Assembly: GCA_963837215.1 (NCBI GenBank)
Contig: CAWIML010000009.1
Span: forward strand, 295,058-359,057
Direction: 5' to 3'
Length of the DNA stretch: 64,000 bases
Source of the DNA: an uncultured Chloroflexia bacterium
GTDB taxonomy: Bacteria; Chloroflexota; Limnocylindria; Limnocylindrales; CSP1-4
Shown one piece after another: positions 3,016 through 57,563 of the stretch (positions are counted from its first letter, which is position 1; every line of letters starts with the position of its first letter). The notes beneath the pieces are model-generated. The model worked only from the letters and a program-made list of their open reading frames with translations. It did not search any database and was not told the DNA's origin. The position numbers and the translations under genes are program-made.

Positions 3016-3233
3016 CGAGTGGACCCCAGGCTGCGAGAGCGATAAGTGCATGGGTCGTGGTTCGGTCTCGCCACTGGCTCGACGCGGGGCTCGTTGGGCG
3101 ACCGTGTGTAGCCCCCGCGTGTCAGCGCCTCCCTCGACGTTGGCGGAGTATGCGCGCCGTGGCCCATGCGGCGTCATGCCATAAGGCAGAAGGCGGTGCC
3201 TAGGGCACCGGCCGCGCCGAGGGCGCGGGGCTG

Positions 3234-4175
3234 CTACGGCTCCGTGATGGCGGCCGCATAGCGCTCTGGCGTCACGTTGCGGCCGGTGACCAGGACGACC
3301 AGCTTCCGAACGGCCGGCACCTTGCCGGCCAGCACCGCGGCCACGCCGGCGGCACCGGCACCCTCGGCGATCAGCCCGTGATGGATCATCAGCCAGCGCA
3401 TGGCTGCTCGGATCTCGGCCTCGGTCGCGCACACGAACCGGGCATCGCCCAGGAGCGACGGCGTCACAGAGCCTGGTTCGATGTTGCCGGCCAGCCCGTC
3501 TGCGAGCGTGTCGCCGTAGATGATGGGCACGGTCTTGCCGGCCGCCACGGCCGTCGAGACGGCCAACGACGCGCAGGCCTCGACCCCGACCAGCTCCACG
3601 TCACGGCGTCGTCGCGCCCAGAGTGCGACACCTGCCAGCAGGCCGCCACCGCCGACCGGCACCACGATCGTCAACGGGCCCGAGGCCTGTGTCTCGAGCT
3701 CGCGGCCGACCGTGCTCGTACCGGCGATGACCATGGTGTCGTTGTACGGCGAGACGTAGGTCGATCCGGGCCCGACCAGTGTCGGAGCGTAGGCCTCGGC
3801 GGCATCTGCGGTGCCGTGCAGGATGAGCTCGATCGGCTGTGCGCGGAGTTTGGCGATCTTGGCCGGCGATGCCTGCTCGGAGACGACGACCGTCGCCTGG
3901 AGCCCGAAGAGGGAGGCCGCCCAGGCAACGGCGAGGCCATGGTTGCCGGCGCTGGCCGCGATGACGTGGTGGCCGGTCGGTAGACGCGACAGCGACGACA
4001 GCGCGCCGCGGACCTTGAACGACCCGGTCGGCTGCAACGTCTCCAGCTTCAACCAGGCGTCAGGTGCCAGCGGGCTGGCGACCAACGGCGTCGGCGCCAG
4101 GCGCGCCGATACCGTCGACCAGGCCGCGTCGAGGTCAGCTTGGGTCGGTACTGTGACGCGGCGGATGGTCGTCAT
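3234..4175 (-). CDS. PLP-dependent threonine/serine dehydratase (tryptophan-synthase-beta fold).
   Basis: GSFKVRGA PLP-lysine motif, a glycine-rich VPVGGGGL loop and a length of 313 aa. It is the last gene of the kinase / TolB-like / dehydratase operon. Confidence 0.85.
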   Translation of the reverse strand: MTTIRRVTVPTQADLDAAWSTVSARLAPTPLVASPLAPDAWLKLETLQPTGSFKVRGALSSLSRLPTGHHVIAASAGNHGLAVAWAASLFGLQATVVVSEQASPAKIAKLRAQPIELILHGTADAAEAYAPTLVGPGSTYVSPYNDTMVIAGTSTVGRELETQASGPLTIVVPVGGGGLLAGVALWARRRRDVELVGVEACASLAVSTAVAAGKTVPIIYGDTLADGLAGNIEPGSVTPSLLGDARFVCATEAEIRAAMRWLMIHHGLIAEGAGAAGVAAVLAGKVPAVRKLVVLVTGRNVTPERYAAAITEP

Positions 4176-9558: not shown

Positions 9559-10512
9559 TCAGATCCAGCGTTTGACGCGGGCCACGCTCAGGATGGCCAG
9601 CGCGACACCGACCATCACGCCGACGACGATCATGAAGGCGCGCCCATCGTCGAAGATCGGCAGGTCGAAGTTCATGCCCATGACACCCGCCAGGACCGCC
9701 GCCGGCAGGAACATGGCCGACAGGACGGTCAACGTCTGGATCGCCCGATTCGAGCGCTGACCGGTGCGGGCCATAAGGATGTCGAAGGAGCCGAGCAACA
9801 GCTCTCGGGCGTTCTCTGCGGCAGCCATGGTCTGGCGCAGCCGATCGATGAGGCCCGGCCATGGGCGACCGAGCTCCTCGTGGAGCTCGAAATCGGGTCG
9901 AGCGAGCGCCGCGAAGGCCGCCTCATGCGGGGCCAGTGCGCGACGCACGAATGCGATCCGGCGGCGGAGCCGGATGATCGGCTCCAGCAGCTCGTCGCCG
10001 GTCGCCCGCAGCGCACGGTCGTCGAGTTCATCGATCTCACGCACGACATCCTCGATCCAGGCACCGTAGCCCGTCAGCACCCGGTCGACGATGATGCCCA
10101 TGAATTGTCCGGCGGCGAGCTTGCCGAGGCGGGAGTCGCCAGGGTGCTCCTCGTCAAGACCGCTCAGCGCCGGGACCTCGTCTCGATGCACGGTCACGAC
10201 GAAGTCGCGACCGACGAGGAGGTCGATCTCAGCCACGCGCAGATCCTCGTCGCCGATGACCGCAGCCATGGTCAAGTGGACGTAGCTCGGATGGAGCCGG
10301 ATCCGCGCTCGTCCGAGGCGGCGGCTCAAGTCATGCATCGTCTCGGGTAGCCAGTCGAAGACGCCGGCGAGTCGCTCCATGTCGTGATCGTCGGGCGCCA
10401 GGACGTCGATCCACAGGATCTCGTCGTTAGCGAGCCCTGCGAGGGGGTGATCGTCGACGGCTACATCACGATCCTCCCCGGCCGCGTCGAAGAGGCGAGC
10501 CTCGATGGGCAC
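9559..10512 (-). CDS. corA: CorA-family Mg2+/Co2+ transporter.
   Basis: GMNF signature plus two C-terminal TM helices; 317 aa. Confidence 0.9.
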   Translation of the reverse strand: MPIEARLFDAAGEDRDVAVDDHPLAGLANDEILWIDVLAPDDHDMERLAGVFDWLPETMHDLSRRLGRARIRLHPSYVHLTMAAVIGDEDLRVAEIDLLVGRDFVVTVHRDEVPALSGLDEEHPGDSRLGKLAAGQFMGIIVDRVLTGYGAWIEDVVREIDELDDRALRATGDELLEPIIRLRRRIAFVRRALAPHEAAFAALARPDFELHEELGRPWPGLIDRLRQTMAAAENARELLLGSFDILMARTGQRSNRAIQTLTVLSAMFLPAAVLAGVMGMNFDLPIFDDGRAFMIVVGVMVGVALAILSVARVKRWI

Positions 10513-21979: not shown

Positions 21980-23211
21980 CTAGGAGCCGGCCTGCCGGTC
22001 GAGGGCCTCGATCGAGGCGATGAACTCCTGGAGCCGCTCCTGGATGTCGGCCGCGATCGACCCCAGGCCTTCTCCGGTCGGGTCAGCCTGGCGCAGGGTG
22101 GCCTCTACGAGCAAGGCTTGCCGCAGCCCGTCAAGCCTGTCTGTCGACCGATCGAGCAGATCCGCCACGGTCGGCTCGGACCGACGCCTGGCATGAGCGC
22201 GTCAGACAGGAAGCGCTCGATCGCCAGGTCGAGGGCCCCGATCGATGTCTCCGGATCGCGCGCCTCGATCAGCGTCGCCAGCGCGCGACCATTCCGGACG
22301 AGCTGCGGTAGCGTGACATCAGGTTGTGCCAGCCGATCGGCGACCAGCCACGCCCCGGCGACCCACGGCGAGACGATCAGCGCTACCCACCAGCCGGGCT
22401 CGTCGGTGATCGACCGTTGGCGGTCAGCAGCACGCTGGGCGGCCGCCCCCACCGCGATGAGGTCCTGCTTGACGCGCGTATCACTTCCCTCGGTGCCGAC
22501 GATGGTGAGCGTCACCGTGTAGAGGCCATCCTCCCGGTACACGTGCGTGGGGTGGACGTCGAACGAGACGCGGCCGTCGCCGAACGTCCAGAGTTGCCCA
22601 CTGGGTGCTCCGCTCGAGAGGTTCGCGAAGGCGACCAGGAGGGGCGGGTCGCCTTCGATCGAGCTGGCATAGAAGCCCGCCTGCAGTCCTGCCGCCGGAC
22701 TCGGTGACGGCGACGGGCTGGGTGTCGGGCTCGGCGATGGCGATGGCGTCGGGGACGGGCTCGGCGTCGGGCTCGGCCTTGTCGTCGGCGTCGGTGTGGG
22801 GCGGCCGGTCGGCGCCGGGCTGGGCCTGGTCGTCGGCTCGGCGGTCGGCCCTTCGGTCGGTGCCGTGGTCGGGGCCGTCGTCGGTTCGGCGGTGGGCTCA
22901 GGCGTGGGCTCGGGCGTGGGCTCCGCCGTCGGTTCCGGTGTCGGCTCCGTCGTCGGCTCGGCGGTCGGCTCCTCAGTAGGTCGGTCAGGCTCGCAGGTCT
23001 TGAGCAGGTCGGAGATCTCCGACGGGAGCGGGATGCCGCCCGGGACGCACGAGGGCAGCGGTGGCAGTTCGGCCGGCAGGGAAGGCAGGTCGCCTGGCAG
23101 CGTGAAGTCGCTCGGCAGCGGCGGCAGGTCGGTGGGCAGGGCGTCGCATGCGGAGATGGTCAGCGCAAGGGCGAGAAGTGCGGCAGCGAAACGTCGTTGC
23201 TGGTTCGGCAT
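21980..23211 (-). CDS. Lipoprotein with a Pro/Thr/Glu-rich linker and a PKD domain; one frame change at ~22150.
   Basis: Lipobox LTISAC after MPNQQRRFAAALLALA, then (EPT/PSP) low-complexity repeats, then a PKD motif (QLWTFGDGRVSFDVHPTHVYREDGLYTVTLTIVG). The C-terminal ~60 aa continue in ORF 21980..22168. Confidence 0.65.
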
Positions 23212-23263
23212 GACGGCAAGCCTAGCGCGACTGGTGATACCCGGTCAGCGGGAGCCCGTGACG

Positions 23264-28270: not shown

Positions 28271-28915
28271 CTAGGGGGCCGCGCTCGCGCTTGGCGCCGG
28301 GCTGGCGGTGGGTGCCTGGGTCGCGCCAGGTGCCTGGGTGGCGTCAGGCTCCAGCGTGGGTCCAGGGAGTTGGTAGGGCAGTTGCCAGCCGCCGCCCGGC
28401 ATCCCGCCGCGTGGGAACAGTCGATCACCCGGAAGCAGCCCGCCTCGACGACCCTGCCAGGACCCGTCCCGTGATCCGGGCCCCTGATGGAAGCCGCCGC
28501 GGCCATCGCCTCGGCCAGGGAACCCTCCGCGGCCTGGGAGCTGCTCGTAGCCCGGGATGCGGCCGTTCTGGTCGCCCGCGTCGATCCGATGGGACCGAAT
28601 GCCGCGCTCGTTCCCATCGTCGATCGTGCGACCGGCGGCGAAGCCGATGCCGCCGACGAGCACGAAGGCCCCGACAAGGACCGCCACTTCGACCCACCGG
28701 CGCCGGCTCGTCGGTGCCTCGGGCGGCGGGGCGGTGGCCGCCGACACCGTGCCAGGCTCGCCACTCGGCGCGGCAGGCTCCTGGACGGTCGCCTCGTTCG
28801 GGAGGGAATCTGGTGTCGTTCCCGGGCTCGGGGGCGCGTCGGTCGCCGGCGTGCCCGGCACCGCGACGGGAGTCGGCCCAGTCGTCGGATCTGGCGGGGT
28901 GGTCTGGTCGGTCAC
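28271..28915 (-). CDS. Proline-rich single-pass membrane protein.
   Basis: A Pro/Thr-rich N-terminus, one TM helix (WVEVAVLVGAFVLVGGIGFAAG) and a Gly/Arg-rich C-terminus. Moderate confidence only. Confidence 0.45.
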   Translation of the reverse strand: MTDQTTPPDPTTGPTPVAVPGTPATDAPPSPGTTPDSLPNEATVQEPAAPSGEPGTVSAATAPPPEAPTSRRRWVEVAVLVGAFVLVGGIGFAAGRTIDDGNERGIRSHRIDAGDQNGRIPGYEQLPGRGGFPGRGDGRGGFHQGPGSRDGSWQGRRGGLLPGDRLFPRGGMPGGGWQLPYQLPGPTLEPDATQAPGATQAPTASPAPSASAAP

Positions 28916-29083
28916 GCGTGGACTCCTTGTCGTCGTGCTGGTCGTATCGATCGCGTCCGTCGCCCGAAGGTCGGGCAGGCAGACGCCTGACTCAGCGCGA
29001 GGGTCGTCTCGTCACCTGACGGAGTCCTGAATCGAACGGATCTCCTGGTGCCCACGTCAGTGGACGCGGACGACCGAGGCCGG

Positions 29084-32000
29084 TCAGGCCTCGACGGGGG
29101 TCGACGTCGTCGAGCCGCTTCGGGCCCTGGCGGTCGACGGACGGGCGAGCTCCGCATCGAGGCGCCCGAGGTACGGCTTGGCGCCGACCGACTCGAAGAT
29201 GGCCCGAGCGTCCTCGCCGGCGGCGCGAGCCTCGGACACCTGCGGTCCGACCGCATGGATGAAGGTCAGCCCGCACATGGCCTGCTCGAAACCGGCGCCG
29301 ACCTCCGCAAATCCGCGAAGCGCTGCGACGTAGCCGTTGTTCGCTTCGGCGATGTCGCCTTCGAGTGCGCTCAGGCTGGCGTGCGCCTCGAGTCGGCTGG
29401 CCTTCGCGAAGAGCGTGACGTCGGGGTCGGCATCCAGCCGCTCCATCGCTGTCCGTAACGCCGACCGAGTCGCCCAGCCAGGTCGCCGAGCGCACCGCCA
29501 GCGCAAGGAGGTAGGACGCGAGCGTGGGTGACGCCGCGACGCTGCGAAGGTAGGCGTCGTACGCCTCCGCGTAGGCACCGAGGCTGAAGGCGAGGTCGCC
29601 GCGCAGCCAGTCCATGACCGCCTGATAGAACGGGTCGGCCAGATCGGCGAGCAATGACTCGAGCCGATGCAGCTGGTCGTCGATCGGTTCGCCCCGGGCG
29701 ATGCGGAAGAGCAGAGCGATGCTCAAGGCGCGATGCTCGTCGGCCGGTTCGGACGTCTCGTCGATGATCGCCTGCACCCGACCCAGCGCGAGGTCCCATT
29801 CGATGCCAGCCGAGTACCGGTAGTAGGCGGAGGAGCCGATCAGCCAGGTCGTCATCGGACGATTGCCGGACCGCTGGCCGAGCTCGATGCCGGCCTCGGC
29901 CTCGGCGAGGCCGCGCATCAGGTCATCGCCGGTGAGTGAACTCGCAAGGTTGTTGCGGGCGCGAAGCTCGGCGGCCAGGAAGCCGCCCTGTTGGGCCGTC
30001 CGGACGGCGGCTTCATGGATCGCCACGGCTTCGCGGCGCCGGCCGACATAGCTGAGCGCCGAGGCCTTGTTGTTGAAGGCTTCCGCGATGAGCTCCTCGA
30101 GGTCGAGCCGCTCGGCGATGGGGAGGGCCTGGTCGGCGACTTCGATCGCACGCGCCGGCTGGTCGTTGCGGAAGAGGGCCCGCGAAAGGTTGGTCAGGAT
30201 CGTGGCTCGGACGTCCTCATGGCCGCCAGCGGGCAGAGCCTTCAGGCCGGCCTCGAGTACGGGCACTGCGTCGCCGACTCGGCCGGCATCGATGAGCGTC
30301 TGCCCGAGTTGCGCGCTCGCGCGTCCTGCACCCGCGGCGTCTCCAGATCCGTCGTACCGCTCGAGCGCCTGCCGCGCGAACGCCTCCGACCGCTCGTAGT
30401 GCCCGGCGAAGTCCGCCGAGCGCGCGCTCTGGAGCAGCAACTCCGCCTGCTCCATCGGGTCCGTGGTGACCTGCAGCGCTTGCTGGGCGAAGGCGACAGC
30501 CTGGTCATGGGCACCAAGGCCTTCAGAGCGTTCGGCGGCGCCACGAAGGGCGAGCCGCGCCTGGGCGGCGACCGTGTCGGCCTCTTCGCCCGGCGTCGAG
30601 GCCTCGAAGGCGGCCAGGTAGTGGCCCGCCTGCACGCCCGCCAGCTCGTCCTCGCCGATCGACTCGATGAAACGTGCCGCGGCGATGTGGCGTGCGCGGC
30701 GGTCGCGGCGACCGAGCGTGCCGTAGGCGACCTCGCGGATGAGCGACTGGACGAACCCGTACTGGCCACGCTCCGGCGATCGGGGGTCGGATTCGACCTC
30801 GAGCAACTCCCGACGGACAAGGGCGCGCAGTCGCGGCTCGAGCTCCTCAGGGCCGGCGCCGTTGACGGCTGTCAGACCGGCCAGCGTGAAGACCTGCCCG
30901 AGCACCGACGCGTCCTGCAGGATGGTGCGATCGACGGGCTCGAGCGCGTCGAGGCGGGAGGCGATCAGCGACCGCAGCGTCTCGGGAATGGCCAGGGTCC
31001 CCAGGTCGCCGACCGGCCGGTAGCGGTCGTCGACACGCTCCAGGCGTCCGTCTGAGACGAGGGCGCGGACCGTCTCGACGGCGTACAGGGGCATGCCGTC
31101 AGCCCGCGCCAGGATCGCCTTGACGGCGCTCTCCGGGAGGCCGGGAACAAAACCCGCCAGGAGCTCGCGCATCGCCTGCGTCGGAGAGCGGCTCGAGGGC
31201 CAGCGACGTGAAGTGGCGCGTGCCCGATCCCCAGTCCGGCCGCCTGTCGAAGAGCTCGGGCCGGGCAAGGGTGACCACCAGGATCGGCACGCCCTTGGAC
31301 CATTCGAGCAGCTTGTCGATGAAGTCGAGCAGGCCGCTGTCGGCCCACTGGAGGTCCTCGAAGAGGAGGATGGTCGGCCCCCGCTCGGCGATGCGCTCGA
31401 AGAAGATGCGCCAGGCGGCGAACAGCATGTCCCGACCGCCTGGCGGGGGCGGTTCGAGGCCCAGGAGGGTCAGCAGCGCAGGCTCGACCCAGCGCTGGTC
31501 GTCGGCCCCCGGAACGTACTCGGCCACGGTGGCGGCGATGCGCTGGCGGGTCGTGGCCTCGTCGTCGGTCTCCGCCAGGCCCGCCCGCCGGCGGACCATC
31601 TCGCCCAGCGCCCAGAAGGTGATGCCCTCGCCGTATGCGGGTGAGCGCCCGCGGTGCCAGTAGACGTTCTCGAGGATGCCGTCGATGTACTTCTCGAGCT
31701 CCCAGGCCAGCCGGCTCTTGCCGATGCCGCCCGGCCCACTGATCGAGACGAGCCTGGCTCTGCGCTCGCGACCGACGGCGGCGAGGGCGTCCTTGAGCAG
31801 ACGGAACTCCTCGTCACGGCCGACGAACGGCGGTTCTGGCATGTCCGATCGCCCGTGGCCGCCGCGCTGGGCGACGACCCGTAACGCTCGCCATGCCTGG
31901 ACCGGGCTGGCCTTGCCCTTGAGGAGCTGGTCGCCGGCCTCTTCGAAGGCGATGGCCGACGAAGCAGCCCGCTGGGTCGCCTCGCCGACCAGGACGGTCC

Positions 32001-32685
32001 CGACCGGGGCCATCGATTGCAGGCGGGCTGCGGTGTTGACGAGGTCGCCTGCGACCATGCCCTCGCTCGTCGCGCCGAGTGTCACCGCAGCCTCGCCGGT
32101 CAGCACGCCGGCCCGCGCCTGGATGCCGGGCCCGAGCGCCTGGACCGCATCGACAAGATCGAGTGCGGCGCGGACGGCCCGCTCGGCGTCATCCTCCCGG
32201 GCCACGGGCGCGCCCCAGACGGCCATGACCGCGTCGCCGATGAACTTCTCGACGGTACCGCCGTATCGCCCGATGACGTCGCGCCCCAGATCGAAGTAGG
32301 CCGAGAGTGTCTCGCGGACCTCCTCCGCGTCGCGACCCTCGGCGAACGGTGTGAAGCCCACGAGGTCGGCGAAGAGGACGCTGACCAAACGCCGCTCCGC
32401 GACGGCAGGGCTCAGGCCCGCAGGTGCGCCTCTCGAAACACCCGGCGGAGCCGCACCGGCGCCGGGACCCGATGACCCGGTCAGCGGCGTGGCGCATTCG
32501 CTGCAGAACTTGGCGGTCGCGCCGTTGACCGTCCCGCACGCTGGACAGGCGACCGCGAGTCGTGTCGCGCACTCGGAACAGAACTTCGCCCCGACCGTGT
32601 TCTCCGTGCCGCAGTTCGAGCAGATCACCGATGACCTCGCAGCGTCCCCCAGACAACGGGGACGTGGATCGCGAGCGTACCCGAC
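29084..32685 (-). CDS. Giant signalling protein, paralogue 1 (~1200 aa): double zinc ribbon, class-III adenylyl/guanylyl cyclase domain, STAND/AAA ATPase (P-loop), TPR array. No LuxR HTH is visible. Two frame changes (~31180, ~29465).
   Basis: CSNCGTEN...CSEC...CPACG...CSEC ribbons. Cyclase motifs LVSVLFADLVGFT and GDAVMAVWGAP. P-loop ISGPGGIGKSRLA, Walker B ILLFEDLQWAD, then TPR-like helical repeats to the C-terminus. The pieces lie in ORFs 31099..33273, 28992..31268 and 29084..29578. Confidence 0.8.
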
Positions 32686-32761
32686 GTCGCCATGCGATGC
32701 GAGTGGTTCAGGCTCGCCCGAGGTGCACGGGCTGGCGCCAGCCCGTACCGGCACGATCGGC

Positions 32762-33685
32762 TCAGCCGACGAGCGACGTCGCCAGCCCCTTCCGTGCCAG
32801 GCGCTCCTCGAACCGCTGAGCGGCGACCTCGAGCGCGTCGAGGTGCTCGGCGAGACGCCGTCGTGCATCCTCGGCCGCGGCATCGAGACCTTCGAGCTCG
32901 AAGATCCGCCAGTGCCGGAGGATGGGCATGAGCACTTCGTCGCGGTGGACCCGGAGGTTGTAGATGCCGGCGGTCGCCATCTGCGCCGCCTTGCGCATGA
33001 AGCCCGGGATGCCGGCGCCCGGCATCTGGAACCGAAGGACCTCGTCGACGATGGCTCGCACCGTAGCCGACGGCTGCAGCTTGATGGCGGCCGAGAGCAC
33101 ATCGCGGTAGAAGACCATATGCAGGTTCTCGTCGGCCGCGATGCGGACCATGATCCTGTCCGCCACGGGGTCATTCGAGTAGCGGCCCGTGTTGCGGTGC
33201 GAGATCCGCGTCGCCAGCTCCTGGAACGCCACGTAGGCCAGCCCGTGAAGCGTGTCCGGCGCGCCGAGGTCATAGCCCTGTTGGAGCTGCGTCATGCGGC
33301 CACGCTCGAGCATCACGGGGTCGATGTTGCGGGTCACCGTCAGGTAATCGCGGAGGACGATGGCATGGCGACCCTCCTCTGCCGTCCAGCGCCCGACCCA
33401 GGTGATCCAGGCGCCGTCGCCGCGCCCGAACATGCCGTGGATCAGACGGTGGTAGCTGGGCAGGTTGTCCTCGGTCAGCAGGTTGACCTCGAAGGCAGTC
33501 TGGGCGACGCCGGTCAGGCGCGCCTGATCGGGCGTCCAAGGCTCGGTATCGAAGTCGCGACCCATGCGGTAGGGGATGAAGTCGTGCGGGAACCACTCGA
33601 CGGCGACGCCGAGGTGGCGATCCAGCAGCCGTCCAGCTTCGGGCTCGAGCTCGATCAGCAGGGCGGCCTCGTCGTAGTCGGGCAT
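32762..33685 (-). CDS. Acyl-ACP desaturase (DesA-like soluble di-iron fatty-acid desaturase, ferritin-like).
   Basis: The 307-aa C-terminal part of ORF 32762..35197, starting at MPDYDEAALLIELEP. Di-iron motifs EENRH-like (TEDNLPSYHRL, TAEEGRHAIVL, AADENLHMVFY). Confidence 0.85.
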   Translation of the reverse strand: MPDYDEAALLIELEPEAGRLLDRHLGVAVEWFPHDFIPYRMGRDFDTEPWTPDQARLTGVAQTAFEVNLLTEDNLPSYHRLIHGMFGRGDGAWITWVGRWTAEEGRHAIVLRDYLTVTRNIDPVMLERGRMTQLQQGYDLGAPDTLHGLAYVAFQELATRISHRNTGRYSNDPVADRIMVRIAADENLHMVFYRDVLSAAIKLQPSATVRAIVDEVLRFQMPGAGIPGFMRKAAQMATAGIYNLRVHRDEVLMPILRHWRIFELEGLDAAAEDARRRLAEHLDALEVAAQRFEERLARKGLATSLVG

Positions 33686-33848
33686 AACAGCCTCATGGGA
33701 TGTCCGGATGACCACGTCGGCGTTCGACGAGCGGCCGGACCGACCAAATGTACGCCTGAACGGGCCCGAGCGCCTCTGAGCGTGTGCAAGCCTGCATCGA
33801 GCGACCCGATCGGCGACCGGCAGGTCAGGCTCGCGCCGAGTCGCCCGG

Positions 33849-36800
33849 TCAGGTGCGCTCGCCGGCCTCGGCGATCGGTGCTGTCGATCTGCGGGGCGAG
33901 GTCGATCTCGTCGGAGACCCGGCGACCGCCGCGTCCAGCCAGGCCAGGTACGGGGCGGCGTCGACGCGCTCGAAGATCGAGCGTGCCTCGGCGACGAGAG
34001 CGGCGCCGACCACCTTCGCGCCCAGGATCCGGACCGTGTCGAGGATGGTCCGCGCGACATTGAAGTCGTGGCCGAACGTCCGGTACGTTGCGAGCACGTC
34101 GTGGAGCGCTGCCATCGCCTCCTCGACGCGGTCCTCGAGGGCCGCCAGCCAACCGCGGGCCCGCAGCCGCTCGATCCGCTGGGTGGGCGAGTCGGCAGTC
34201 GGCAGCGCATCGAGTTCGTCGACCAGGCGCCGGAGCTCATCGACATCTCGCAGTCGGACGGCGCTCGCCGACGCGTCCGCCAGTCCCCACGGGGCGTGGC
34301 CACTGAACCCGGCCGCCGTGCGGCGTTGCTCCGCCAGAGCCGTTCGGTCGTCCCCGGCCAGGATGGCGCGGTCGGCGAGCAACACGTGCACCTGGTTCGC
34401 CACCTGCGGATCACCGAGCTGCCTGGCGGCCAGCTTGACGCGCTCGAGCGTCTCGTCGCATGGATCGCCCCTCGCCATCTGTATCGCCGCCATGGCCGTG
34501 CGAATACCCACCTCGTCGCCCAGGCCACGTGCGTCGGCGATGGCGTCTGCCCCTTGCGCCAGCGCGGCATCCCAGTCGTCGGCGCCTGCCCAGCTCGCGG
34601 TGATGACGAACTGCAGCTGCCAGTTAGCCATCTGGCGATTGCCGTAGCGGCGCGCGATCTCGAGCGTCTCTCGGAACATCGACGTGGCGCGTTGGGGCTC
34701 GCGGTCCCAGAGCGTCGCGGCAAGGTTTGCCCGAGCCCGGAGCTCGGACGCGACGAAGCCACCGCGGGCAGCGATCTCGACCGCGGCCTGCTGCAGGGCG
34801 AGCCCTTCCTGGATGCGCCCGAGGTCGGCGAGTGAGGAGCCCTTGTTATTGAAGGCGTCAGCGATGAGCTGGTCGAGGCCGAGTCGTTCCGCGATCGGCA
34901 GACCCTGGTCGGCGGCGGCGACGGACTTGATCGGGTCGTCCATGCGCATGTAGCCTCGAGACAAGATGATCGCCAGGCGCGCGCGGGCCTCGTCGGGCGC
35001 CTCGGCCGGCAGTTCTGCGAAGGCGGGCTCGAGGATCTCGACGGCCGCCTCCGTCCTCGCCCCGTTGAGGAGCACTTCGCCCAGCCGGGCGGTCGCCCGC
35101 GCAACGTCGACGGCGTCGCCACCCTCGCGGAAGGCTTCGATGGCGTCCCGCGCCATGGCCTCTGCGAGCGAGTGGTCGCCGGCGTCCGAGGCGGCACTCG
35201 CCGCCATCTCGAGGAGCTGCCCGCGCTCGGCTGGCAGGCTGACGACGGTGAGGGCCTGCGTCAAGTAGGTCACGCCTTGGTCATTGGCGCCCAGGTCGAT
35301 AGCGCGTTCGGCGGCCGCCCGGAGTGCGATGCGCGCCTGCGCGCCGACCGCCTCGGCTTCCTCACCGGCGCTCGAGGCCTCATGGGCGGCGAGGTAGTGG
35401 CCGGCCAGCGCGCCGGCCAGCTCGTCGTCACCGAGCGCCTCGAAGTAGCGCGCTGCGGCAAGGTGCCGGGCTCGCCGGTCAGGACGGGCGAGGGTGCCGT
35501 AAGCGACTTCGCGGATGAGCGACTGGACGAAGCGGTACTGTCCCCGCTCCGGCGAACGAGGATCCGCCTCGACCTCGAGCAGCTCCCGACGTACCAGGCC
35601 GCGAAGGTGCGGCTCCAGGTCGTCGACAGACAGGTCCGCCGCCGGCCCGGTCGCGACGGCCGTCAGCCCGGCCACGGTGAACGCCCGGCCGAGCACCGAC
35701 GCGTCCTGGAGGAGAGCCCGGTCGACGCGTCTCGAGCGCGTCGAGGCGCGAGGCGATGAGCGACCGGAGCGTCTCCGGGATGGCCAGGGTGCCCAGCTCG
35801 CCGACTGGCCGATACGCGTCACCGACGCGCTCCAGGCGCCCGTCGGCGACGAGCGAGCGGACGGTTTCCACGGCGTAGAGCGGGACGCCATCGGCCCTGG
35901 CGAGGATCGTCGCGACCGCTGGCTCCGGCAACTCGGGAACGAAGCCGGCAAGCAGCTCGCGCATGGCCTCGGCCGAGAGCGGATCGAGGGCCATCGAGGT
36001 CGCGTGGCGGGTGCCCGTCCCCCAGTCCGGTCGGCGGTCGAAGAGCTCCGGCCGTGCCAGGGTCACGACCAGGATGGGCACGCCCTTGGACCACTCGAGG
36101 AGCTGCTCGATGAAGTCGAGCAGGCCGCTGTCGGCCCACTGGAGGTCCTCGAAGAGGAGGATGGTCGGCCCGCGCTCCGCGATGCGCTCGAAGAAGATGC
36201 GCCAGGCGGCGAAGAGGACGTCCCGGCCACCGGGCGGCGGCGGCTCGAGGCCCAGGAGGGTCAACATCGCGGGTTCGATCCAACGCTGGTCCTCGGCGTC
36301 GGGTACGAACTCGGCCACGGTCGACGAGATGCGCAGACGCGTCGACGCTTCGTCGTCGCCCTCTGCCAGGCCGGCCCGTCGTCGGACCATCTCGCCCAGC
36401 GCCCAGAAGGTGATGCCCTCGCCGTAGGACGGCGACCGCCCGCGGTGCCAGTAGATGTCCGCTGACACGCCGTCGATGTACTTCTCGAGCTCCCAGGCGA
36501 GGCGGCTCTTGCCGATGCCGCCTGGACCCGAGATGGACACCAGCCGCGGCCGTCGATCCCGGCCGATGGCGCTCACGGCGTCGCGGAGGATGCGGAAATC
36601 GTCCTCCCGCCCGACGAATGGCGGCTCCGGCATGTCCGAGCGCCCATACCCGCCCCGCTGGGCTACCACGCGCAGCGCCCGCCAGGCCGGGACCGGGCTC
36701 GTCTTGCCCTTGAGAAGCTGATCGCCGGCGGGCTCGAAGGCGATGGCGGCGGCGGCCGCGCGCTGGGTCGCCTCGCCGACGAGGACGCTGCCCGGCGGCG

Positions 36801-37472
36801 CGATCGACTGGAGGCGGCTGGCCGTATTGACCAGATCACCGGCGACCATGCCCTGATTGGTGGCACCGAGGGTGACCGCGGCTTCGCCGGTCAGGACACC
36901 GGCCCGCGCCTGGATACCGGGGCCGAGCGACCGGACGGCGTCGACGAGCTCGAGGGCCGGCGCGGACAGCGCGTTCCGCGTCGTCCTCGCGCGCGACCGG
37001 TGTGCCCCAGACGGCCATGACGGCGTCGCCGATGAACTTCTCCACCGTGCCGCCGTAGCGGCCGATGACGTCAGAGGCCAACTCGAAGTAGCGCGACAGC
37101 GTCTCGCGTACGTCCTCCGCGTCGCGCTCCTGGGCGAACGTCGTGAAGCCGATCAGATCGGCAAAGAGGACACTGACCAGACGGCGCTCCGCCACTGGGG
37201 TGGCCGACCCGGTGGGCGGTGCAGCGCCTCGACCGATGGCGGCCACGGACGGTTCGCTGCCGGCTACGTCGGCGTCGATGGGCGTGCCGCATTCGCTGCA
37301 GTACTTCGCAGTCGGCGCGTTCGCGGTGCCACAGGACGGACACAGCAGCGCGCATCTGCACGCCGCACTCGGAGCAGAACTTGGCACCGAGTGCGTTCTC
37401 CGTCCCGCAGTTGGCGCAATTCACCGACGGCCCTCCAGCAGTTGCCCGGATCGGATCGCGAGCGTACCCGAC
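33849..37472 (-). CDS. Giant signalling protein, paralogue 2 (zinc ribbons, adenylyl cyclase, STAND ATPase, TPR); at least three frame changes (~37345, ~36958, ~35737).
   Basis: Same architecture and roughly 70-80% protein identity to paralogue 1 (LVSVLFADLIGFT, GDAVMAVWGTP, ISGPGGIGKSRLA, ILLFEDLQWADSGLLDFIEQLLEWSKGVPILVVTLARPELFDRRPDWG). The pieces lie in ORFs 37071..37643, 36836..37387, 35479..36849 and 33849..35951. Confidence 0.8.
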
Positions 37473-37497
37473 GGCGGAGCTGGAGGGTAGGGCCGTG

Positions 37498-39021
37498 TCA
37501 TGCCTCGGCGTTGATCTCCCGGGTGCGCCGTGCCACGTACGCGTCGAGCGCTTCGCCCACGGCCGGGTCCATAGGTGGCGGCCGCGCCTCGGCCAGGAGC
37601 TGCTTCCAGATCCGATTGGCGCGCTGCGTCGCCGTCTGGGCACCGTCCTCCTGCCAGGTCTCGAAGTTGCGCCAGTCCGAGAGGAGCGGGCGGTAGAAGG
37701 CGGTCTCGTAGCGCGCCATCGTGTGGGCGGTCCCGAAGTGGTGCCCGCCTGGCCCGACCTCGGCCATCGCCTCGAGCCCGAGCGTGCCCTCGTCGACGAC
37801 CATCGGCTGCAGCACCTCGGCCATCATCTGCAGGATCTCGGCGTCGAGGATGAGCTTCTCGTAGGAGGCCGTCAGGCCGCCCTCCAACCAGCCGGCACCC
37901 TGATACAGGAGGTTGACGCCACCGAGGATGGCGCCCCAGACGGCCATCTCCGACTCGTAGGCTGCCTGGGCGTCGACGACGTTGGAGGCGGTCACGTTCG
38001 AGGAGCGCCAAGGGAGACCGTATCGGCGTGCCAGCTGTCCCGTTGCGAAGGCGGCCTTGACGTACTCGGGCGTGCCGAAGGCCGGGGCGCCGGAGCGCAT
38101 GTCCACGTTGGAGGTGAAGCCGCCATAGACGACCGGCGCACCCGGTCGGGCGAGCTGGGTCAGGGCGACCATGAAGAGCGCCTCGGCGTTCTGCTGGGCA
38201 AGGGCGCCGGCGAGGGTGGCCGGGGTCATGGCGCCCGCCAGCGTGAATGGCGTGGCGACCACAGCCTGGCCGTGGATGGCCATCTCGATGAGCCCGTCTG
38301 ACATCGGGCCGTCGAGGCGCAGCGGGGTATTGGAGTTGATGATCGTCATCAGGCTCGGCCGCTCGAGGAGCCCGTCGCGATCGACGCCCAAGGCGAGACA
38401 ACTCATCTCGATGGCGTCGTCGACCACGACGCGCCCGGAGCCCAGGCACTGCCACGACTTGTCGAGCTCGGCGATGAGGATGCGGTACATCTCGAGGTGC
38501 CGAGTGGACACCGGCAAGTCGGTCGGCTCGAGGGGACCGCCGCCCTCCTGGTGCACGATGTCAAGGGCGCCGATGAGCCGCACGTAGTCGCGGAAGTCGG
38601 CGGCGTTGCCGGCCCGACGCCCGCGGTCGAGGTCGGTCACGAAGGCCGGCCCCCCGACGGCCCCGAAGACGACGTCGGCACCGCCGAACGTCAAGGCGCG
38701 CGCCGGGTTGCGAGCGTGGAGCGTGAAGGTCGAAGGCGCGCGCGCGACCAGCGCCTCGACCTGCGCGCCCTCGAGTCGCACGCGCCGTACGGCCCGGTCC
38801 ACGCTGGCTCCCGTCGATGCCAGGAGGTCGAGGGCGCGGTCGCCCATGACCTCGAAGCCGATCTCCTCGAGGATCCGGAGGCTGGCCCGATGGATGGTCT
38901 CGACCTGTTCGGGATCGAGGATCTCCACCGGGCGAAATGGATTGACGAGTCGGCGCCATGGCGGTCGGGCGAGGCCCCCGGCCTCGCGCCGGCCGCGCCG
39001 GCGGGCGCCCTCAGCCGTCAC
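37498..39021 (-). CDS. MttB-superfamily methyltransferase (trimethylamine / glycine-betaine:corrinoid methyltransferase-like); non-pyrrolysine type.
   Basis: 507-aa TIM-barrel methyltransferase recognised along its full length (...GGGPLEPTDLPVSTRHLEMY..., ...FGTPEYVKAAFATGQLARRYGLPWRSSNV...). No in-frame amber codon. Confidence 0.85.
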   Translation of the reverse strand: MTAEGARRRGRREAGGLARPPWRRLVNPFRPVEILDPEQVETIHRASLRILEEIGFEVMGDRALDLLASTGASVDRAVRRVRLEGAQVEALVARAPSTFTLHARNPARALTFGGADVVFGAVGGPAFVTDLDRGRRAGNAADFRDYVRLIGALDIVHQEGGGPLEPTDLPVSTRHLEMYRILIAELDKSWQCLGSGRVVVDDAIEMSCLALGVDRDGLLERPSLMTIINSNTPLRLDGPMSDGLIEMAIHGQAVVATPFTLAGAMTPATLAGALAQQNAEALFMVALTQLARPGAPVVYGGFTSNVDMRSGAPAFGTPEYVKAAFATGQLARRYGLPWRSSNVTASNVVDAQAAYESEMAVWGAILGGVNLLYQGAGWLEGGLTASYEKLILDAEILQMMAEVLQPMVVDEGTLGLEAMAEVGPGGHHFGTAHTMARYETAFYRPLLSDWRNFETWQEDGAQTATQRANRIWKQLLAEARPPPMDPAVGEALDAYVARRTREINAEA

Positions 39022-40705
39022 GGTCGCGTGCCAGGTAGGCCTCAGCGATGCGGTCGGCCGTCACGCGCGCGTCATAGGTGCCGGTGATGGCCAGCAGGAA
39101 GGCGTCGCGGTCGAGCGCCTGCAGCTCGACGTCGGTCAACGCCGTGACGGTCGCCGTACGCGGCACCGCGCGCATCAGCGCGATCTCCCCGAAGGCGTCG
39201 CCGCGCTCCAACTGGCGCAGCTGGCGCCCGTCCTGGCTGACGGCCAGCCGACCCCGTTCGACGACATAGAAGCGGTCGCCGACATCCCCCTGCCTGATGA
39301 CATCGCTGCCGCCTGCGTGGAGGATCGGTACCAGCGCGCGGGCGGCCGCTTCCAACGCCGGCGCCGGCACCGGGGCGAAGAGCGGCAGGCTCCGAAGCAG
39401 TCGGATCTCGAGCGTCGGTACACGGATGCGCCCCTCGGCGCGGCCCAGTCGGAACCAGGCGACGACCGCCCCGATCGGCAGCACAGCCGCGATCACGGCA
39501 AAGGTCGCCGGGAGGCCGATCCGTTGGACGAGGATGGCGGGCAGGATGGAGCCGACGGCGAGACCGGCCATGGCGAAGCCCTCGACGAGCCCGAAGACGC
39601 CAGCCAGGACATCATCAGGCACGATGCGTTGGAGGAGGGTCCGGCCGGCGACGTCGACGAGAGCAAGGCTGACGCCGCAGACCACCATCAGGCCCGCCGC
39701 CGCAGTCGCCGACTGGGCGAGTGGGGCCGCCAGCAGACCGAGTCCGAAGACGACGGCACCCAGCGCGAGCCACGGCGAGAGTCGGCCTCGACCAACCAGG
39801 ACGAGGGTCAGCGCGCCGCCGACCACGCCGCCGAGCCCGACGGCAGCCGTCAGGTAGCCGGCCCCGGCGCCTCCGATCTCGAGGACCTCGATGGCCAGCA
39901 GCACGAGCAGGACGTCGATGGCACCGATCATGACGTAGCGGGCGCCGAGCATGATGACCAGCAGCCGCTGGTCGGCATCGCGGCTGACCTGTCGGATGCC
40001 CTCGAAGAAGGAAGGCTGAGGCGCCGGGCGCGATCCGACCCGCGGGACATCGGGCGTGGCCGGGTCGCTGGCCGTTCGTTCGGGAGCGACGTCGGCCGCG
40101 CGGTGCGGTCGGAGCCGAAACGCCAGGAGCGTGGACAGGCTCACGAGGACGGCGCACACGATGAAGACCTGGCCCGGCTGTCCCGCGACCAGCATCAGCC
40201 CGGCCAGGATGGGCCCGATGAGCACGCCGAGCCCGTCGATGATGGTCGAGACGGCGTTGCCGGCCGTGACCTCCTGGGCGGTGTCGGCATAGGCGGGCAC
40301 GAGTGCCGCCTGGAGCGGCCGGGCGATGGTCAGGCTGCAGGAGTAGGCGACGGCGATCAGATAGACGAGCGCCGCGGGCAAGCCGATCAGCATCGCCGCC
40401 CCGACGGCCAGCGTCGTCAGTGCCAGCGCACCGTAGCCGGCCACGAGCAGGCGATCCCGACGATATCGATCACCGAGGCTGTTGACGAGCGGCGCGAAGA
40501 AGGCGGCCGGCACCAGCTGGCCGAACGCCACCAACCCGACCGAGGCTGGACCGGTCGCGTCGTAGGCGTAGACCAGGAGCGCGACCCAGGTTCCGTATTC
40601 GAGGATCGAAAAGCCCAGATACGCGAGAGCCATCCGGCGGAGGTCGTGGTTGCGGAGCACCGCGACGAAGGCACGCAGGGACGCACGGAGGCGGCTGGCG
40701 GGCAT
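39011..40705 (-). CDS. MFS transporter fused to a C-terminal cyclic-nucleotide-binding (cNMP/CAP-type) domain.
   Basis: Twelve TM MFS body followed by LRSLPLFAPVP...GDRFYVVERGRLAV...GDAFGEIAL...RTATVTALTDVELQALDRDAF. Confidence 0.8.
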   Translation of the reverse strand: MPASRLRASLRAFVAVLRNHDLRRMALAYLGFSILEYGTWVALLVYAYDATGPASVGLVAFGQLVPAAFFAPLVNSLGDRYRRDRLLVAGYGALALTTLAVGAAMLIGLPAALVYLIAVAYSCSLTIARPLQAALVPAYADTAQEVTAGNAVSTIIDGLGVLIGPILAGLMLVAGQPGQVFIVCAVLVSLSTLLAFRLRPHRAADVAPERTASDPATPDVPRVGSRPAPQPSFFEGIRQVSRDADQRLLVIMLGARYVMIGAIDVLLVLLAIEVLEIGGAGAGYLTAAVGLGGVVGGALTLVLVGRGRLSPWLALGAVVFGLGLLAAPLAQSATAAAGLMVVCGVSLALVDVAGRTLLQRIVPDDVLAGVFGLVEGFAMAGLAVGSILPAILVQRIGLPATFAVIAAVLPIGAVVAWFRLGRAEGRIRVPTLEIRLLRSLPLFAPVPAPALEAAARALVPILHAGGSDVIRQGDVGDRFYVVERGRLAVSQDGRQLRQLERGDAFGEIALMRAVPRTATVTALTDVELQALDRDAFLLAITGTYDARVTADRIAEAYLARDRDG

Positions 40706-40764
40706 GCCGTAAGCATCGCGTATCCGGCCACGGCTGCACACCTCCTGGCGGTACCCTCTTCGGC

Positions 40765-54647: not shown

Positions 54648-56542
54648 ATGCTCACGTCCGCACGCGCCCGTCGCTGGCGTCCGGTCCTGATCCTGGCGTC
54701 GCTGGCCGCGATGCTGCTGCCGTCGGCGATCCCTGTCGCCGCCGCGGACCCGGTCATCCTCAAGATCGGGACCGTCCAGGATCTCGACTCGATGAACGCC
54801 TACGAGACCGAGTTCTTCATCGGCTATGAGATCTTCGGCCTCAACTACGACCTGCTCGTGGGCTACGGCCCGAACGCCGAGCCCGCCGCCGGCTTCACCG
54901 AGTCATGGATGCAGGACGGAACGAAGTGGACATTCAAGATCAACCCCGACCTCAAGTGGTCGGACGGCACGCCCGCAACGTCCGAGGACGCGCGCTGGAC
55001 GATCCAGAAGCTGCTCGACGGTCAGGCCGCGGATGGTTACGTGGGGGCCGGTTACCTCGACCCCTACCTGACGTACGCCGGCGTCACGGCCGTCTCCGCA
55101 CCAGACCCGCAGACGCTGGTCATCGAAACCGCGACACCGAATACGCAGATCCTGACCTCATACCTGCCCATCCTGCCCAAGCATGTCTGGGAGACCCGCG
55201 ACATCGGGACCGACGCGAACAAATCCCCGGTCGTCGGCTCCGGCGCCTACCAGACGGCGGAGTGGAAGCCCGGCGAGTACGTCCGTATGGTCCGCAACCC
55301 CCACTACTGGGGTCCGAAGGGATTCGCCGACGAGATCTTCTTCCAGTTCTTCAAAGACGAAGGCGCGATGGTCGAGGCCTTCAAGAACGGCGAGATCGAC
55401 TACGCCCGCAACGTGACCGCGGACCAGTACGAGCAGCTCAAGGGCCTGCCAGACATGGTGACCGTCGAGTCCGCGCTGGCGGCCGAGGCGAACGCCTTCA
55501 CGATGCTCAACTTCAACGGCTACAGCAAGCCCATCGAAGGTGGTGGCGCCTCGACGCTGGCGGTCCAGGATCCTGCCTTCCGCGATGCCCTTGGGTACGC
55601 CATCGACAAGCCGGCACTCGTTGACAAGGTCCTCGGCGGCCACGGGCTCGTCGGCACGACGCACATCCCGCCGGCCATGGCCGGAGGTTTCTGGCACTAC
55701 GAGCCCCAGAACCAGCGGACCTTCGACATCGAGGTCGCCAAGCAAAAGCTCACGGACGCCGGCTACAAGCTCGACGCGAATGGCAAGCGCCTCGACAAGG
55801 AGGGCAAGCCGATCGACCTCAAGATGGTCGTGCCGGACAGCTCCACGAGCTATGCGCAGAGCGCCGAGTTCATCGCCGGCTGGTGGAGTGAACTGGGCAT
55901 CGATGTCACGACCCGGCCTACGACGGGGACACGGTGACCGCCATCGAGTCGCCACCCGAAGCCGACCCGCCCGGCAAGGCCGACTTCGACGTCGGCGTCT
56001 GGAACTGGGGCGGCGACGTCGACCCGAACTCGCTGCTCAACATCCTGACCACCGACTACATCCCCGCCGGCAGCGACACGTTCTTCTCCAACCCGCGCTA
56101 CGACGAGCTGATGATGCTTCAGGGAGCCGAGCCCGATCCGGCCAAGCGCAAGGTCCTGACTGACGAGATGCAGCAGATCATGTACGACGAGGCGCCGTAC
56201 CACGTGCTCTTCTATGACGCGGCCTTGCATGCCTATCGGACGGACAAATTCGGTGGCTGGACCTTGCAACCCGAGGAAGGGGGGCTCCCCTTCTTCGGCT
56301 TCGGTAACCGCAACTACAACTTGTTGACCGCACCCGAACCGGAGGCCACGCCCGCCCCGTCCGACGCCGCTGTTTCGCCGGGTGCCTCGGCGGCGCCGTC
56401 GCCAGGGACAGACGCCGGCACCGGAAGCAGCGACAACACCCCCCTCGTCCTTGGTGGCGCCGCGATCCTGATCTTGATCGGGATCGTCGCCGTGGTGCTC
56501 ATGCGCCGACGCGGCGCGAAGGGCGACGAAGAAGAGGCGTGA
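54648..56542 (+). CDS. ABC transporter substrate-binding protein, family 5 (peptide/nickel, DppA/OppA-like) with a C-terminal TM anchor; one frame change at ~55930.
   Basis: A GAGGAGGAA RBS precedes the ATG at 54648. Signal peptide, SBP_bac_5 body, then ORF 55934..56542 carries the tail ending in LVLGGAAILILIGIVAVVLMRRRG. Confidence 0.8.
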
Positions 56543-56590
56543 TCCAGGCCTGGCTCCGGCGGGTCGACCCGACGGCCTCAGGCTGACGAC

Positions 56591-57563
56591 ATGCGCTCCG
56601 GCTACCTCGGTCGCCGAGTCCTGCAGGCGATCGCCACGATCGTGGCGATCGTGCTGCTCAACTTCGTCCTCTTCCGGATGATGCCCGGGCTCGCCCGACC
56701 GCATGTCGCGCAACCCGAACGCGAGTCCGGAGGCCCAGGCCGCCATCCGGGAGCGCTTCGGACTCGACAAACCACTCTTCCCCGACCAGTTCGTGGACTA
56801 CGTGGCGGCGACGGTGCAGGGCGATTTCGGCGAGTCGTTCAAGTATCGCAACCAGCCCGTCGCGGAGGTCATCGGTGGGCGGATCCTGCCCACGCTCGTC
56901 CTCTTCGGCCTCGGCGAGCTGATCGCCATCGCGGTCGGCTTCACCCTCGGCGCATACAGCGGATGGCGACGTGGTGGGCCGGTCGACTATGCCGGCAACG
57001 GCATCTCGCTGGTCCTCTACTCGGTGCCTTACTTCCTGCTGGGCATGATCCTGCTCATCATCTTCGCCACGAACCTGGGCTGGTTCCCGACGTCGGGCAT
57101 GACCACCCTGGGGGCTACCTACGACTCCTGGGTCGAGCAGGCCGGCGACTTCCTGAGCCACCTCGTCCTGCCGCTGGCGGCCGTCAGCCTGGGGTTGATC
57201 GGGCAGTACTCGATCCTCATGCGCTCATCGATCATCGACACCCGCGGCGAGGACTACGTCCAGACCGCGAAGGCCAAGGGGCTCAAGGAGTCGAAGGTCC
57301 TGCGGTCGCACGCGGTTCCCAATGCGCTCCTCCCGACGATCTCGCTGGTGGGCATCAACATCGGTTTCATCGTCGCCGGCGCCATCACCGTCGAGGTCGT
57401 CTTCAATTGGCCCGGGCTCGGCACACTCACGCAGGAGGCGCTACAGGCACGTGACTACCCGGTCCTGCAGGGCATCTTCCTGATCCTGGCCGTCTCGGTC
57501 GTCGCCGCCAACCTCCTGGCCGACTTCGCCTACGGCTTCCTCGATCCGCGGGTCAAGTTGTGA
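56591..57563 (+). CDS. ABC transporter permease (DppB/OppB-like); one frame change at ~56695.
   Basis: The N-terminus MRSGYLGRRVLQAIATIVAIVLLNFVLFRMMPG is in ORF 56591..57454. The remainder, including the EAA-like loop (KAKGLKESKVLRSHAVPNALLPTISLVG), is in ORF 56703..57563. Confidence 0.8.

Follow-up and report, generated by a model that had tools for sequence, protein, structure and literature searches.

What do two long, similar genes do in a bacterium that carries them on either side of a fatty acid desaturase gene, and do the three genes act together? The locus lies in a 64,000-nucleotide (nt) stretch of DNA from an uncultured Chloroflexia bacterium of the Limnocylindrales (GenBank assembly GCA_963837215.1, contig CAWIML010000009.1, positions 295,058 to 359,057). 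We call this whole stretch the window; positions are counted from its first nucleotide, and features lie on its minus strand unless stated otherwise. Genes A (29084 to 32628) and B (33849 to 37424) are each predicted to encode a double zinc ribbon, a class III nucleotidyl cyclase, a STAND NTPase, and a tetratricopeptide repeat (TPR) solenoid. We think it probable that A and B belong to a common signaling family and are intact, that their cyclase is gated by a STAND switch, and that the desaturase gene, desA, is a separate neighbor. On sequence grounds, A and B appear to be old tandem paralogs.

The G+C content of the window is about 70%, and raw lists of open reading frames (ORFs) are consequently crowded with spurious frames. 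The G+C signal at third codon positions (GC3) marked genuine coding on the minus strand from 29.1 to 40.7 kb, with sudden frame switches within the two long genes. Translations and Pfam matches gave the order of genes on this strand as MFS_1 plus cNMP_binding, MTTB, gene B, FA_desaturase_2, and gene A. Gene A runs from a GTG start at 32628 to a stop at 29084 to 29086, and encodes 1180 amino acids (aa) after two bases are removed. Its paralog B runs from a GTG start at 37424 to a stop at 33849 to 33851, and encodes 1190 aa after three bases are removed.

We searched Pfam with both the individual ORF pieces and the rebuilt sequences. Both A and B contain DZR/Zn_Ribbon_1 (aa 3 to 49), Guanylate_cyc (aa 81 to 241; E = 5e-17 and 4e-18 in rebuilt A and B, exceeding the gathering score), AAA_16 (aa 267 to 451; E = 4e-19 and 1e-18), and TPR_12, TPR_8, and TPR_10 repeats (about aa 770 to 1035). 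The original prediction of a same-orientation pair with one architecture was thus confirmed by the ORFs and by Pfam. In A, the double zinc ribbon has four CxxC pairs (32482 to 32622; DZR, 4e-10; Zn_Ribbon_1, 1e-10), and its cysteines are invariant in the family alignment. The cyclase domain of A spans 31906 to 32388, and the AAA_16 P-loop region of the STAND module spans 31276 to 31830. The fast-evolving, TPR-like sensor solenoid (aa ~771 to 1180; Pfam TPR_12/10/8) occupies 29087 to 30317.

The cyclase domain of A matched solved class III enzymes both in sequence (phmmer against the PDB: Cya2, 2w01, E = 4e-21; CyaB, 3r5g, E = 4e-16) and in predicted structure. An AlphaFold2 (AF2) model of aa 1 to 802, compared by Foldseek, superposed on CyaB (3r5g, TMt 0.83) and Rv1900c (TMt 0.92) with a root-mean-square deviation of 1.7 to 2.5 Å. 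Class IIIb cyclases (CyaB, 3r5g; S. platensis CyaC, 1wc0) were the best structural and sequence matches; the metal-binding Asp pair, the Lys, the Asn, and the Arg are kept. Both proteins have the two Asp motifs, FADLVGFT and IGDAVMA; of 120 homologs, 113 have the F-x-D motif and 119 have the GD motif. The transition-state Asn and Arg lie in GDLVNTAAR in A and GDLVNTASR in B, a motif found in 118 of the 120, and the substrate Lys is present in both proteins (EKFIGD); all five residues vary hardly at all among the homologs. The original prediction had tied a signaling role to the catalytic residues, and the alignment retained five of the six canonical class III residues, so this role is not refuted. 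These motifs suggest that the cyclase of A and B is probably active.

The NTPase that follows is predicted to belong to a STAND module. In A it has a Walker A motif, GPGGIGKS, and a Walker B motif, ILLFEDLQWAD; the G..GxGKS and D-x4-D columns are invariant in family alignments of 38 and 54 sequences. The NTPase part had no sequence-level match to a solved STAND protein, even with a profile of the 38 sequences. The predicted fold of A (aa ~260 to 800; AF2 and Foldseek) matched the STAND-TPR protein PH0952 (6mfv, E = 6.9e-12 over 570 columns) and Avs3 (8dgc, E = 2e-10 over ~600 columns). Whole-model TM-scores to 6mfv and Avs3 were low (0.20 to 0.26) because the arrangement of the domains is not the same. 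The C-terminal 625 aa of B (aa 566 to 1190) were modeled by AF2 with a pLDDT of 89.9, with helical hairpins up to 23 residues from the end, and Foldseek matched this model to TPR proteins only. PH0952, Avs3, and MalT/AfsR likewise have an AAA_16 domain with Walker A and B motifs followed by a helical repeat sensor. However, the effector of A and B is a cyclase, whereas those of solved STAND proteins are a nuclease, a protease, or a helix-turn-helix (HTH) domain.

How common is this architecture? We searched the N-terminal 509 aa exhaustively against 1.84 billion representatives of clusters at 50% identity. Relaxing the threshold from E ≤ 1e-30 to E ≤ 1e-10 raised the number of family representatives from 11,866 to 53,651. 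The best matches were mostly collinear from residue 1 and 1,140 to 1,200 aa long; among the top 150, the median was 1156 aa, and 107 proteins measured 1100 to 1220 aa. A genome scan matched at least 600 stretches; we examined 81 cyclase-homolog loci (79 from GTDB representatives, plus L001 and L002 from ENA; L numbers denote loci). The loci kept came from Chloroflexota, many of them Limnocylindria/Limnocylindrales, from Actinomycetota (Gaiellales, Solirubrobacterales, and Acidimicrobiia), from Dormibacterota, and from others. Tandem arrays were frequent, with pairs in L028, L043, and L060, a triplet in L071, and sets of four in L052 and L072. A and B are therefore further members of a known, very common kind. 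The original prediction had called the genes giant and their arrangement not described; both terms were overstated, given more than 10,000 clusters at 50% identity of like length and layout and the frequency of tandem arrays. The architecture is widely annotated, as "adenylate/guanylate cyclase domain-containing protein" or "AAA family ATPase," and mycobacterial examples have been known for a long time. Among described proteins, Rv0386, Rv1358, and Rv2488c come closest, with a cyclase, a MalT-type ATPase, TPRs, and a LuxR HTH; Rv0386 has 1085 aa (bioRxiv 10.1101/2024.03.06.583649). No description of a member of the family that lacks the HTH was found in the literature searched.

The two paralogs have diverged unevenly. 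Protein identity is 62% overall, not 70 to 80% as had first been estimated, and falls from 76% in the first 760 aa to 35% in the C-terminal TPR part; DNA identity (78%) is confined to the first 2.2 kb. The ratio of nonsynonymous to synonymous substitution rates (dN/dS) between A and B was 0.09 in the cyclase and 0.16 in the NTPase, with dS at 0.6 to 0.9. These low values indicate that both copies have been under purifying selection for most of their history. In the sensor regions dN/dS rose to 0.5 to 0.96, against 0.09 to 0.24 elsewhere, with dS near saturation, so the C-terminal value is soft. The sensor part of A is 35% identical to that of B and 40% to that of the single L001 gene, whereas the remaining parts are 72 to 83% identical. 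The L001 gene is about equidistant from A and B; its sensor is 40 to 48% identical to theirs, and flanking genes are 81 to 92% identical. Tandem copies in L071 and L072 are 66 to 71% identical over the first 750 aa and 32 to 37% in the C-terminal part. The same pattern in A and B, L071, L072, and L001 indicates that a conserved enzyme and switch with a fast-changing sensor is a trait of the family. Because A and B share the enzyme and switch and differ strongly in the sensor, they probably respond to different input signals.

If the output is a cyclic nucleotide, a receiver may be encoded nearby. In the window, a gene for an MFS transporter with a C-terminal cyclic nucleoside monophosphate (cNMP)-binding domain (39011 to 40741; MFS_1, 2e-28; cNMP_binding, 1.3e-17) lies 1.6 kb upstream of B, as the original prediction had noted in placing such a fusion close by. 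Of 82 loci, 8 had a gene with a cNMP_binding domain no more than 10 kb from the cyclase-STAND gene. Fusions of the MFS-cNMP type recur in distant lineages: they directly adjoin the cyclase gene, in divergent orientation, in a Chloroflexia locus (L006, 8124 to 9710) and a Solirubrobacterales locus (L076, 3718 to 5256), and stand two genes upstream of it in the window and in L001 (1594 to 3327). Small stand-alone cNMP-binding proteins are encoded in L047, L059, L061, and L075, directly adjacent in L059 and L061. A cNMP-binding protein, including the MFS-cNMP fusion, is thus a more reproducible neighbor than desA. The recurrence of such neighbors fits a diffusible cyclic-nucleotide output, and the domain content of the MFS-cNMP protein makes it a candidate receiver of the cyclase product. 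The proposal of a module centered on cyclic AMP (cAMP) gains some support from the recurring MFS-cNMP neighbor; the part of it that linked the module to desA and lipids was not supported.

We suggest how such a protein may work, by analogy with other STAND proteins. At rest, the STAND module would keep the protein as an inactive monomer. A ligand or a partner protein would bind the TPR solenoid and bring about nucleotide exchange and oligomerization. The active sites of class III cyclases form at the dimer interface; oligomerization would pair the N-terminal cyclase domains, and a cyclic nucleotide, probably cAMP, would be made. This diffusible second messenger would be read by cNMP-binding proteins near or far, for example the MFS-cNMP transporter, and the output would not be direct DNA binding.

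Both genes are interrupted as deposited. Using tblastn with homologs, we located five frame changes, two in A and three in B, exactly the number of indels first proposed. Break A-1 is one extra base at 31172 to 31185 (~31178), within "LEPLSD|EAMRELL" in the STAND module (aa ~482); it was placed by the tblastn frame change, by a 1-nt gap in B in the A/B DNA alignment, and by a deletion scan. The 509-aa product that it shortens is the public-record entry, P0001. Break A-2 is one extra base at 29445 to 29475, in the C-terminal TPR part (aa ~1056), placed by three-frame translation, a deletion scan, and a switch of the GC3 frame at 29445/29446. The three breaks in B, each a single extra base, were placed by tblastn and the A/B alignment: B-1 at 37340 to 37364, between the two zinc ribbons; B-2 at 36954 to 36962 in the cyclase domain, where B has GCCGGCCC and A has GCC-GCAC; and B-3 at 35724 to 35732 within "DALE|TVDRALLQD" (aa ~566). 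The A/B DNA alignment had single-base gaps wherever the break sites could be aligned. All five are +1 insertions in ordinary GC-rich sequence, none within a long homopolymer. Deleting one base at each site restored a gap-free alignment there to intact homologs, such as P0241 (1180 aa, collinear with A).

Such breaks are not peculiar to A and B. At least eight more occur in unrelated genes of the window, roughly one per 5 to 7 kb (at ~929, ~2662, ~15313, ~26392, ~43309, ~46567, ~55907, and ~56540 to 56690). This frequency points to single-base indels throughout the assembly. A gene for a large repeat protein is hit twice, and single breaks fall in genes for an ABC ATPase, an ABC-2 permease, a glycosyltransferase, an alpha/beta hydrolase, an SBP_bac_5 protein, and an ABC permease. 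Three of these breaks rest on split Pfam domains, and the rest on inspection of the translations. At ~15313, ABC_tran of the ABC ATPase is in one frame and DrrA1-3_C in the next; at ~26392, the in-frame part of the ABC-2 permease covers model positions 156 to 346 only; and at ~55907, SBP_bac_5 covers model positions 7 to 325 of 368. In 74 of the 79 GTDB-representative loci, many of them in long-read metagenome-assembled genomes (MAGs), the main homolog is a single unbroken frame of about 1,150 to 1,180 codons. The homologs in L001 and L002, which are the closest relatives, are broken. Both are in ENA assemblies with Flye-style contig names that resemble those of the Microflora Danica MAGs. In L001 a PALP gene is broken too, whereas its counterpart in the window is intact. 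The Microflora Danica MAGs were assembled from Nanopore reads only, with one round of Medaka polishing, and were inspected by their authors for Nanopore-associated errors (PMC12313526). We infer that the window, too, comes from a Nanopore-only assembly. Because at least eight breaks lie in unrelated window genes and nearly all homologs are intact, the five breaks in A and B are most probably single-base insertion errors of a long-read-only assembly. Most likely, therefore, A and B are intact in the organism, with 1180 and 1190 codons.

We rejected programmed frameshifting and a family-specific break, because break positions vary by genome, the 74 GTDB loci are unbroken, and the typical length of family members is 1,140 to 1,200 aa. 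Word-indexed homolog lists topped out at 897 aa in one search and 1092 aa in another, which appears to be a search limitation rather than biology.

Several observations weigh against the account given so far. One concerns the product of the cyclase. The purine-specifying position is Met in both proteins (aa ~191 in A and ~192 in B, GMVAGDLVN). It aligns with the Thr of CyaB and the engineered Asp of 5oyh; class IIIb enzymes read adenine N6 with Thr, and class IIIa and IIIc enzymes with Asp, and the regulatory modules of class IIIb enzymes differ from those of A and B as well. Of 118 homologs, 111 have Met at this position, 5 have Leu, and 2 have Ile. A and B thus have neither canonical purine pair (Lys with Asp or Thr for ATP; Glu with Cys or Gly for GTP) but Lys-Met. 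We know of no characterized class III cyclase with a Lys-Met pair, though no exhaustive search was made. A Gln-Asn pair was reportedly ascribed to Rv0386 in work by Castro and colleagues from 2005. The product of A and B is probably cAMP, with a specificity that is uncertain given the Lys-Met pair; this pair could mean a non-cAMP product or a weak enzyme. Next, the switch mechanism is borrowed by analogy from MalT/APAF-1-type STAND switches and class III dimers. The enrichment of cNMP_binding genes near the cyclases is suggestive only, as a set of counts without a genome-wide baseline. Finally, A and B together have 5 breaks in 7.1 kb, whereas the remainder of the window has about 8 in 56.9 kb. 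This excess is about fivefold, with a Poisson P of 0.004, or 0.01 to 0.02 under alternative counts, and leaves room for real inactivation. Insertions outside homopolymers also differ from the classic Nanopore error pattern.

The excess of breaks bears on the alternative that survives best, namely, that A and B are recently inactivated pseudogenes and that the five insertions are real in the DNA of the organism. The position of the insertions away from homopolymer runs, the shortened product P0001 in the public record, and the broken L001 homolog are all consistent with inactivation. However, at least eight other breaks are spread over 57 kb and hit parts of ABC transporters too, and neither in-frame stops nor larger deletions occur in A and B, whose GC3 coding signal has not decayed. 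The low dN/dS of their enzymatic domains (0.09 to 0.16) and the nearly universal integrity of the homologs, many from similar long-read MAGs, also argue against decay. We consider inactivation unlikely. One break in L001 (~11410) lies about 10 nt from A-1, within the "LEPLS-D-AMRELL" stretch that the two genes share, though not at the identical base, either by chance or through error-prone sequence; the two genomes were thus hit at different nucleotides. Candidate causes of the local excess of breaks are mis-polishing between the paralogs, local low coverage, and real mutations. Frame breaks in long-read-only MAGs should not be taken for pseudogenes without the reads.

A more doubtful alternative is that A and B are NLR-like immune or conflict sensors. 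The TPR solenoid would recognize an invader protein, the STAND module would oligomerize, and the cyclase would raise an alarm read by cNMP effectors, in a Pycsar-like logic. A STAND-TPR fold that resembles Avs3, the fast evolution of the sensor, tandem arrays of up to four copies, recurring cNMP-binding neighbors, and a conserved noncanonical substrate pair would all suit such a role. PADLOC also matched the cyclase domain to PycC of Pycsar (PDLC00734, best E = 3.2e-17), which has a homologous cyclase fold, and cNMP-binding proteins are near in some loci, as they would be in a Pycsar system. However, these matches are restricted to the generic cyclase domain, with no system-level match, and A and B are about three times larger than PycC and have a STAND-TPR module. 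We rejected a defense-system assignment, since PADLOC gave generic PycC cyclase-domain matches only. In the window, A and B are surrounded by genes for transport and metabolism rather than defense. We found no adjacent TIR or transmembrane-pore effector and no defense-island context at the window locus, where the cNMP neighbor is an MFS protein two genes away. The neighboring cNMP domains carry no fused TIR, nuclease, or pore, and belong to MFS transporters or small stand-alone proteins. Fast sensor evolution and paralog expansion fit environmental signaling equally well, and the C-terminal dN/dS is soft. We regard a role in immunity as quite unlikely.

Still less likely is that the cyclase, desA, and cyclase genes form a cAMP-centered unit that controls or answers membrane-lipid desaturation. 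The gene that separates A from B is, as the original prediction held, a single desaturase gene. It encodes an unbroken 307-aa desA-type soluble acyl-acyl carrier protein desaturase (32762 to 33685; FA_desaturase_2, 1.8e-62, model positions 5 to 312 of 325), with two di-iron ExxH motifs, EEGRH and DENLH, read in the translation. Orthologs are 89% identical in L001 and 81% identical in L027. We found the triad at no locus beyond the window, among the 81 cyclase-homolog loci and 80 desA-homolog loci. A desA gene adjoins the cyclase gene in 2 of the 81 cyclase-homolog loci (L001 and L027), directly upstream and in the same orientation as in the window; the other 79 have no desA there. L027 belongs to a Limnocylindrales MAG built from short reads; its cyclase gene is intact, and its other neighbors are unrelated to those of the window, so the pair has outlasted a change of context there. 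In L001, a block of membrane-fusion, ABC, and FtsX genes (MacAB-like ABC/MFP) takes the place of B.

The reverse search covered 80 metagenome loci with desA homologs of 76 to 87% identity. A cyclase-STAND gene started within 600 nt downstream of desA in 0 of the 56 loci with enough sequence, and none lay upstream in 53 loci. Within 1.5 kb downstream, one was found in 34 loci (L087), 1 kb away and on the opposite strand. The original prediction had read the triad as a functional unit tied to lipid remodeling, and these counts do not support it; by the criterion set in that prediction, a triad found at no other locus is a lineage-specific arrangement. The position of desA is best read, from gene order in these genomes, as local to a small clade.

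Signals around the genes also bear on whether A, desA, and B form one unit. A 20-nt motif, GTCGGGTACGCTCGCGATCC, lies about 40 to 55 nt upstream of the start of A (32666 to 32685), and an identical copy lies upstream of B (37453 to 37472). The L001 homolog has a copy with 2 mismatches (9944 to 9963). The motif is probably a promoter element, to judge from its TACGCT, which fits a -10-like TANNNT, and it may be a promoter or operator common to both paralogs. A -10-like motif at each gene suggests a separate promoter for A and for B. Together with a GC-rich hairpin after desA, the two motifs hint, weakly, at separate transcripts and so speak against a lipid unit; the hairpin folds no better than shuffled sequences (z = -1.2). 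A scan of 28800 to 37800 for consensus sigma-70 promoters and terminators found nothing, and Rfam gave no match, to a riboswitch or to any other RNA family, in the regions preceding A and B. The sole Rfam match was inside desA, on the plus strand and antisense to it (33309 to 33376), to RF01781, "ASdes TB sRNA" (52.3 bits; gathering score, 40; E = 4.6e-10). It overlies the region of the di-iron motif EGRHAIVLRDYL, and probably stems from conservation of the desaturase coding sequence, not of an antisense RNA.

That A and B are ordinary LuxR/LAL regulators with an overlooked C-terminal HTH, which the domain order they share with the N-terminal part of Rv0386 might suggest (cyclase, MalT-type ATPase, TPR; bioRxiv 10.1101/2024.03.06.583649), is almost certainly wrong, because Pfam found no GerE/LuxR domain in rebuilt A or B even at E ≤ 0.1, precomputed domains included no GerE among the 120 C-terminal homologs listed, and the AF2 helical repeats run nearly to the terminus and match TPR proteins only. 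As far as sequence and fold prediction reach, this identity is refuted. Both the claim that the proteins lack a C-terminal LuxR HTH and their likeness, at the level of architecture, to Rv0386-type proteins were upheld.

Comparison with known systems places A and B nearest to the mycobacterial proteins. By description, Rv0386, Rv1358, and Rv2488c have the same N-terminal cyclase, P-loop STAND/MalT-type ATPase, and TPR-like repeats in about 1,100 aa. Both groups have a noncanonical substrate pair, which is Lys-Met in A and B, and a Gln-Asn pair has been reported for the mycobacterial enzyme (bioRxiv 10.1101/2024.03.06.583649). Unlike the Rv0386-type proteins, A and B have a double zinc ribbon at the N terminus and no LuxR/GerE HTH. 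The best curated match was TIGR03903, a TOMM kinase/cyclase fusion (E = 4.4e-61), in which aa 54 to 719, the cyclase and ATPase part, aligned to model positions 261 to 919. However, the score of 207 bits fell far short of the cut-off, 705.75, and an N-terminal Ser/Thr kinase is missing from A and B. We rejected membership, since the score is below the cut-off and the match begins past the kinase part. No TOMM gene cluster was seen among the neighbors in the window.

Elsewhere in the window, a gene for an MTTB-family methyltransferase (37498 to 39021; Pfam MTTB, 1.9e-190) lies between the MFS-cNMP gene and B. It is a neighbor of B for which no link to the cyclases was seen; the pair of MFS-cNMP and MTTB genes is present in L001 as well. 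At 1 to 3600, a very large, repetitive secreted-type protein is encoded, with repeated "DxDxDGD...TYTP..GF.G.DSFTY" units and two frame breaks. A PT-rich neighbor at 22105 to 23244 was noticed alongside it.

As it stands, the locus itself is of little import, and the desaturase link fails. It is the whole family, rather than this locus, that deserves biochemical study, with the Lys-Met pair and the cNMP and MFS-cNMP neighbors as handles. As a long shot, the zinc-ribbon/cyclase/STAND/TPR family might be a huge class of NLR-like receptors in soil Chloroflexota and Actinomycetota, in which fast-diversifying TPR sensors in tandem arrays each sense a different macromolecule, possibly one from an invader, and the cyclase makes a cNMP of unusual specificity for dedicated cNMP-binding partners, including cNMP-gated MFS transporters. 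If this were true, A and B would be two receptors with one common output. For the family at large, tandem copies with a conserved enzyme and a divergent sensor suggest that these bacteria have enlarged their repertoire of inputs by duplicating one cyclic-nucleotide switch.

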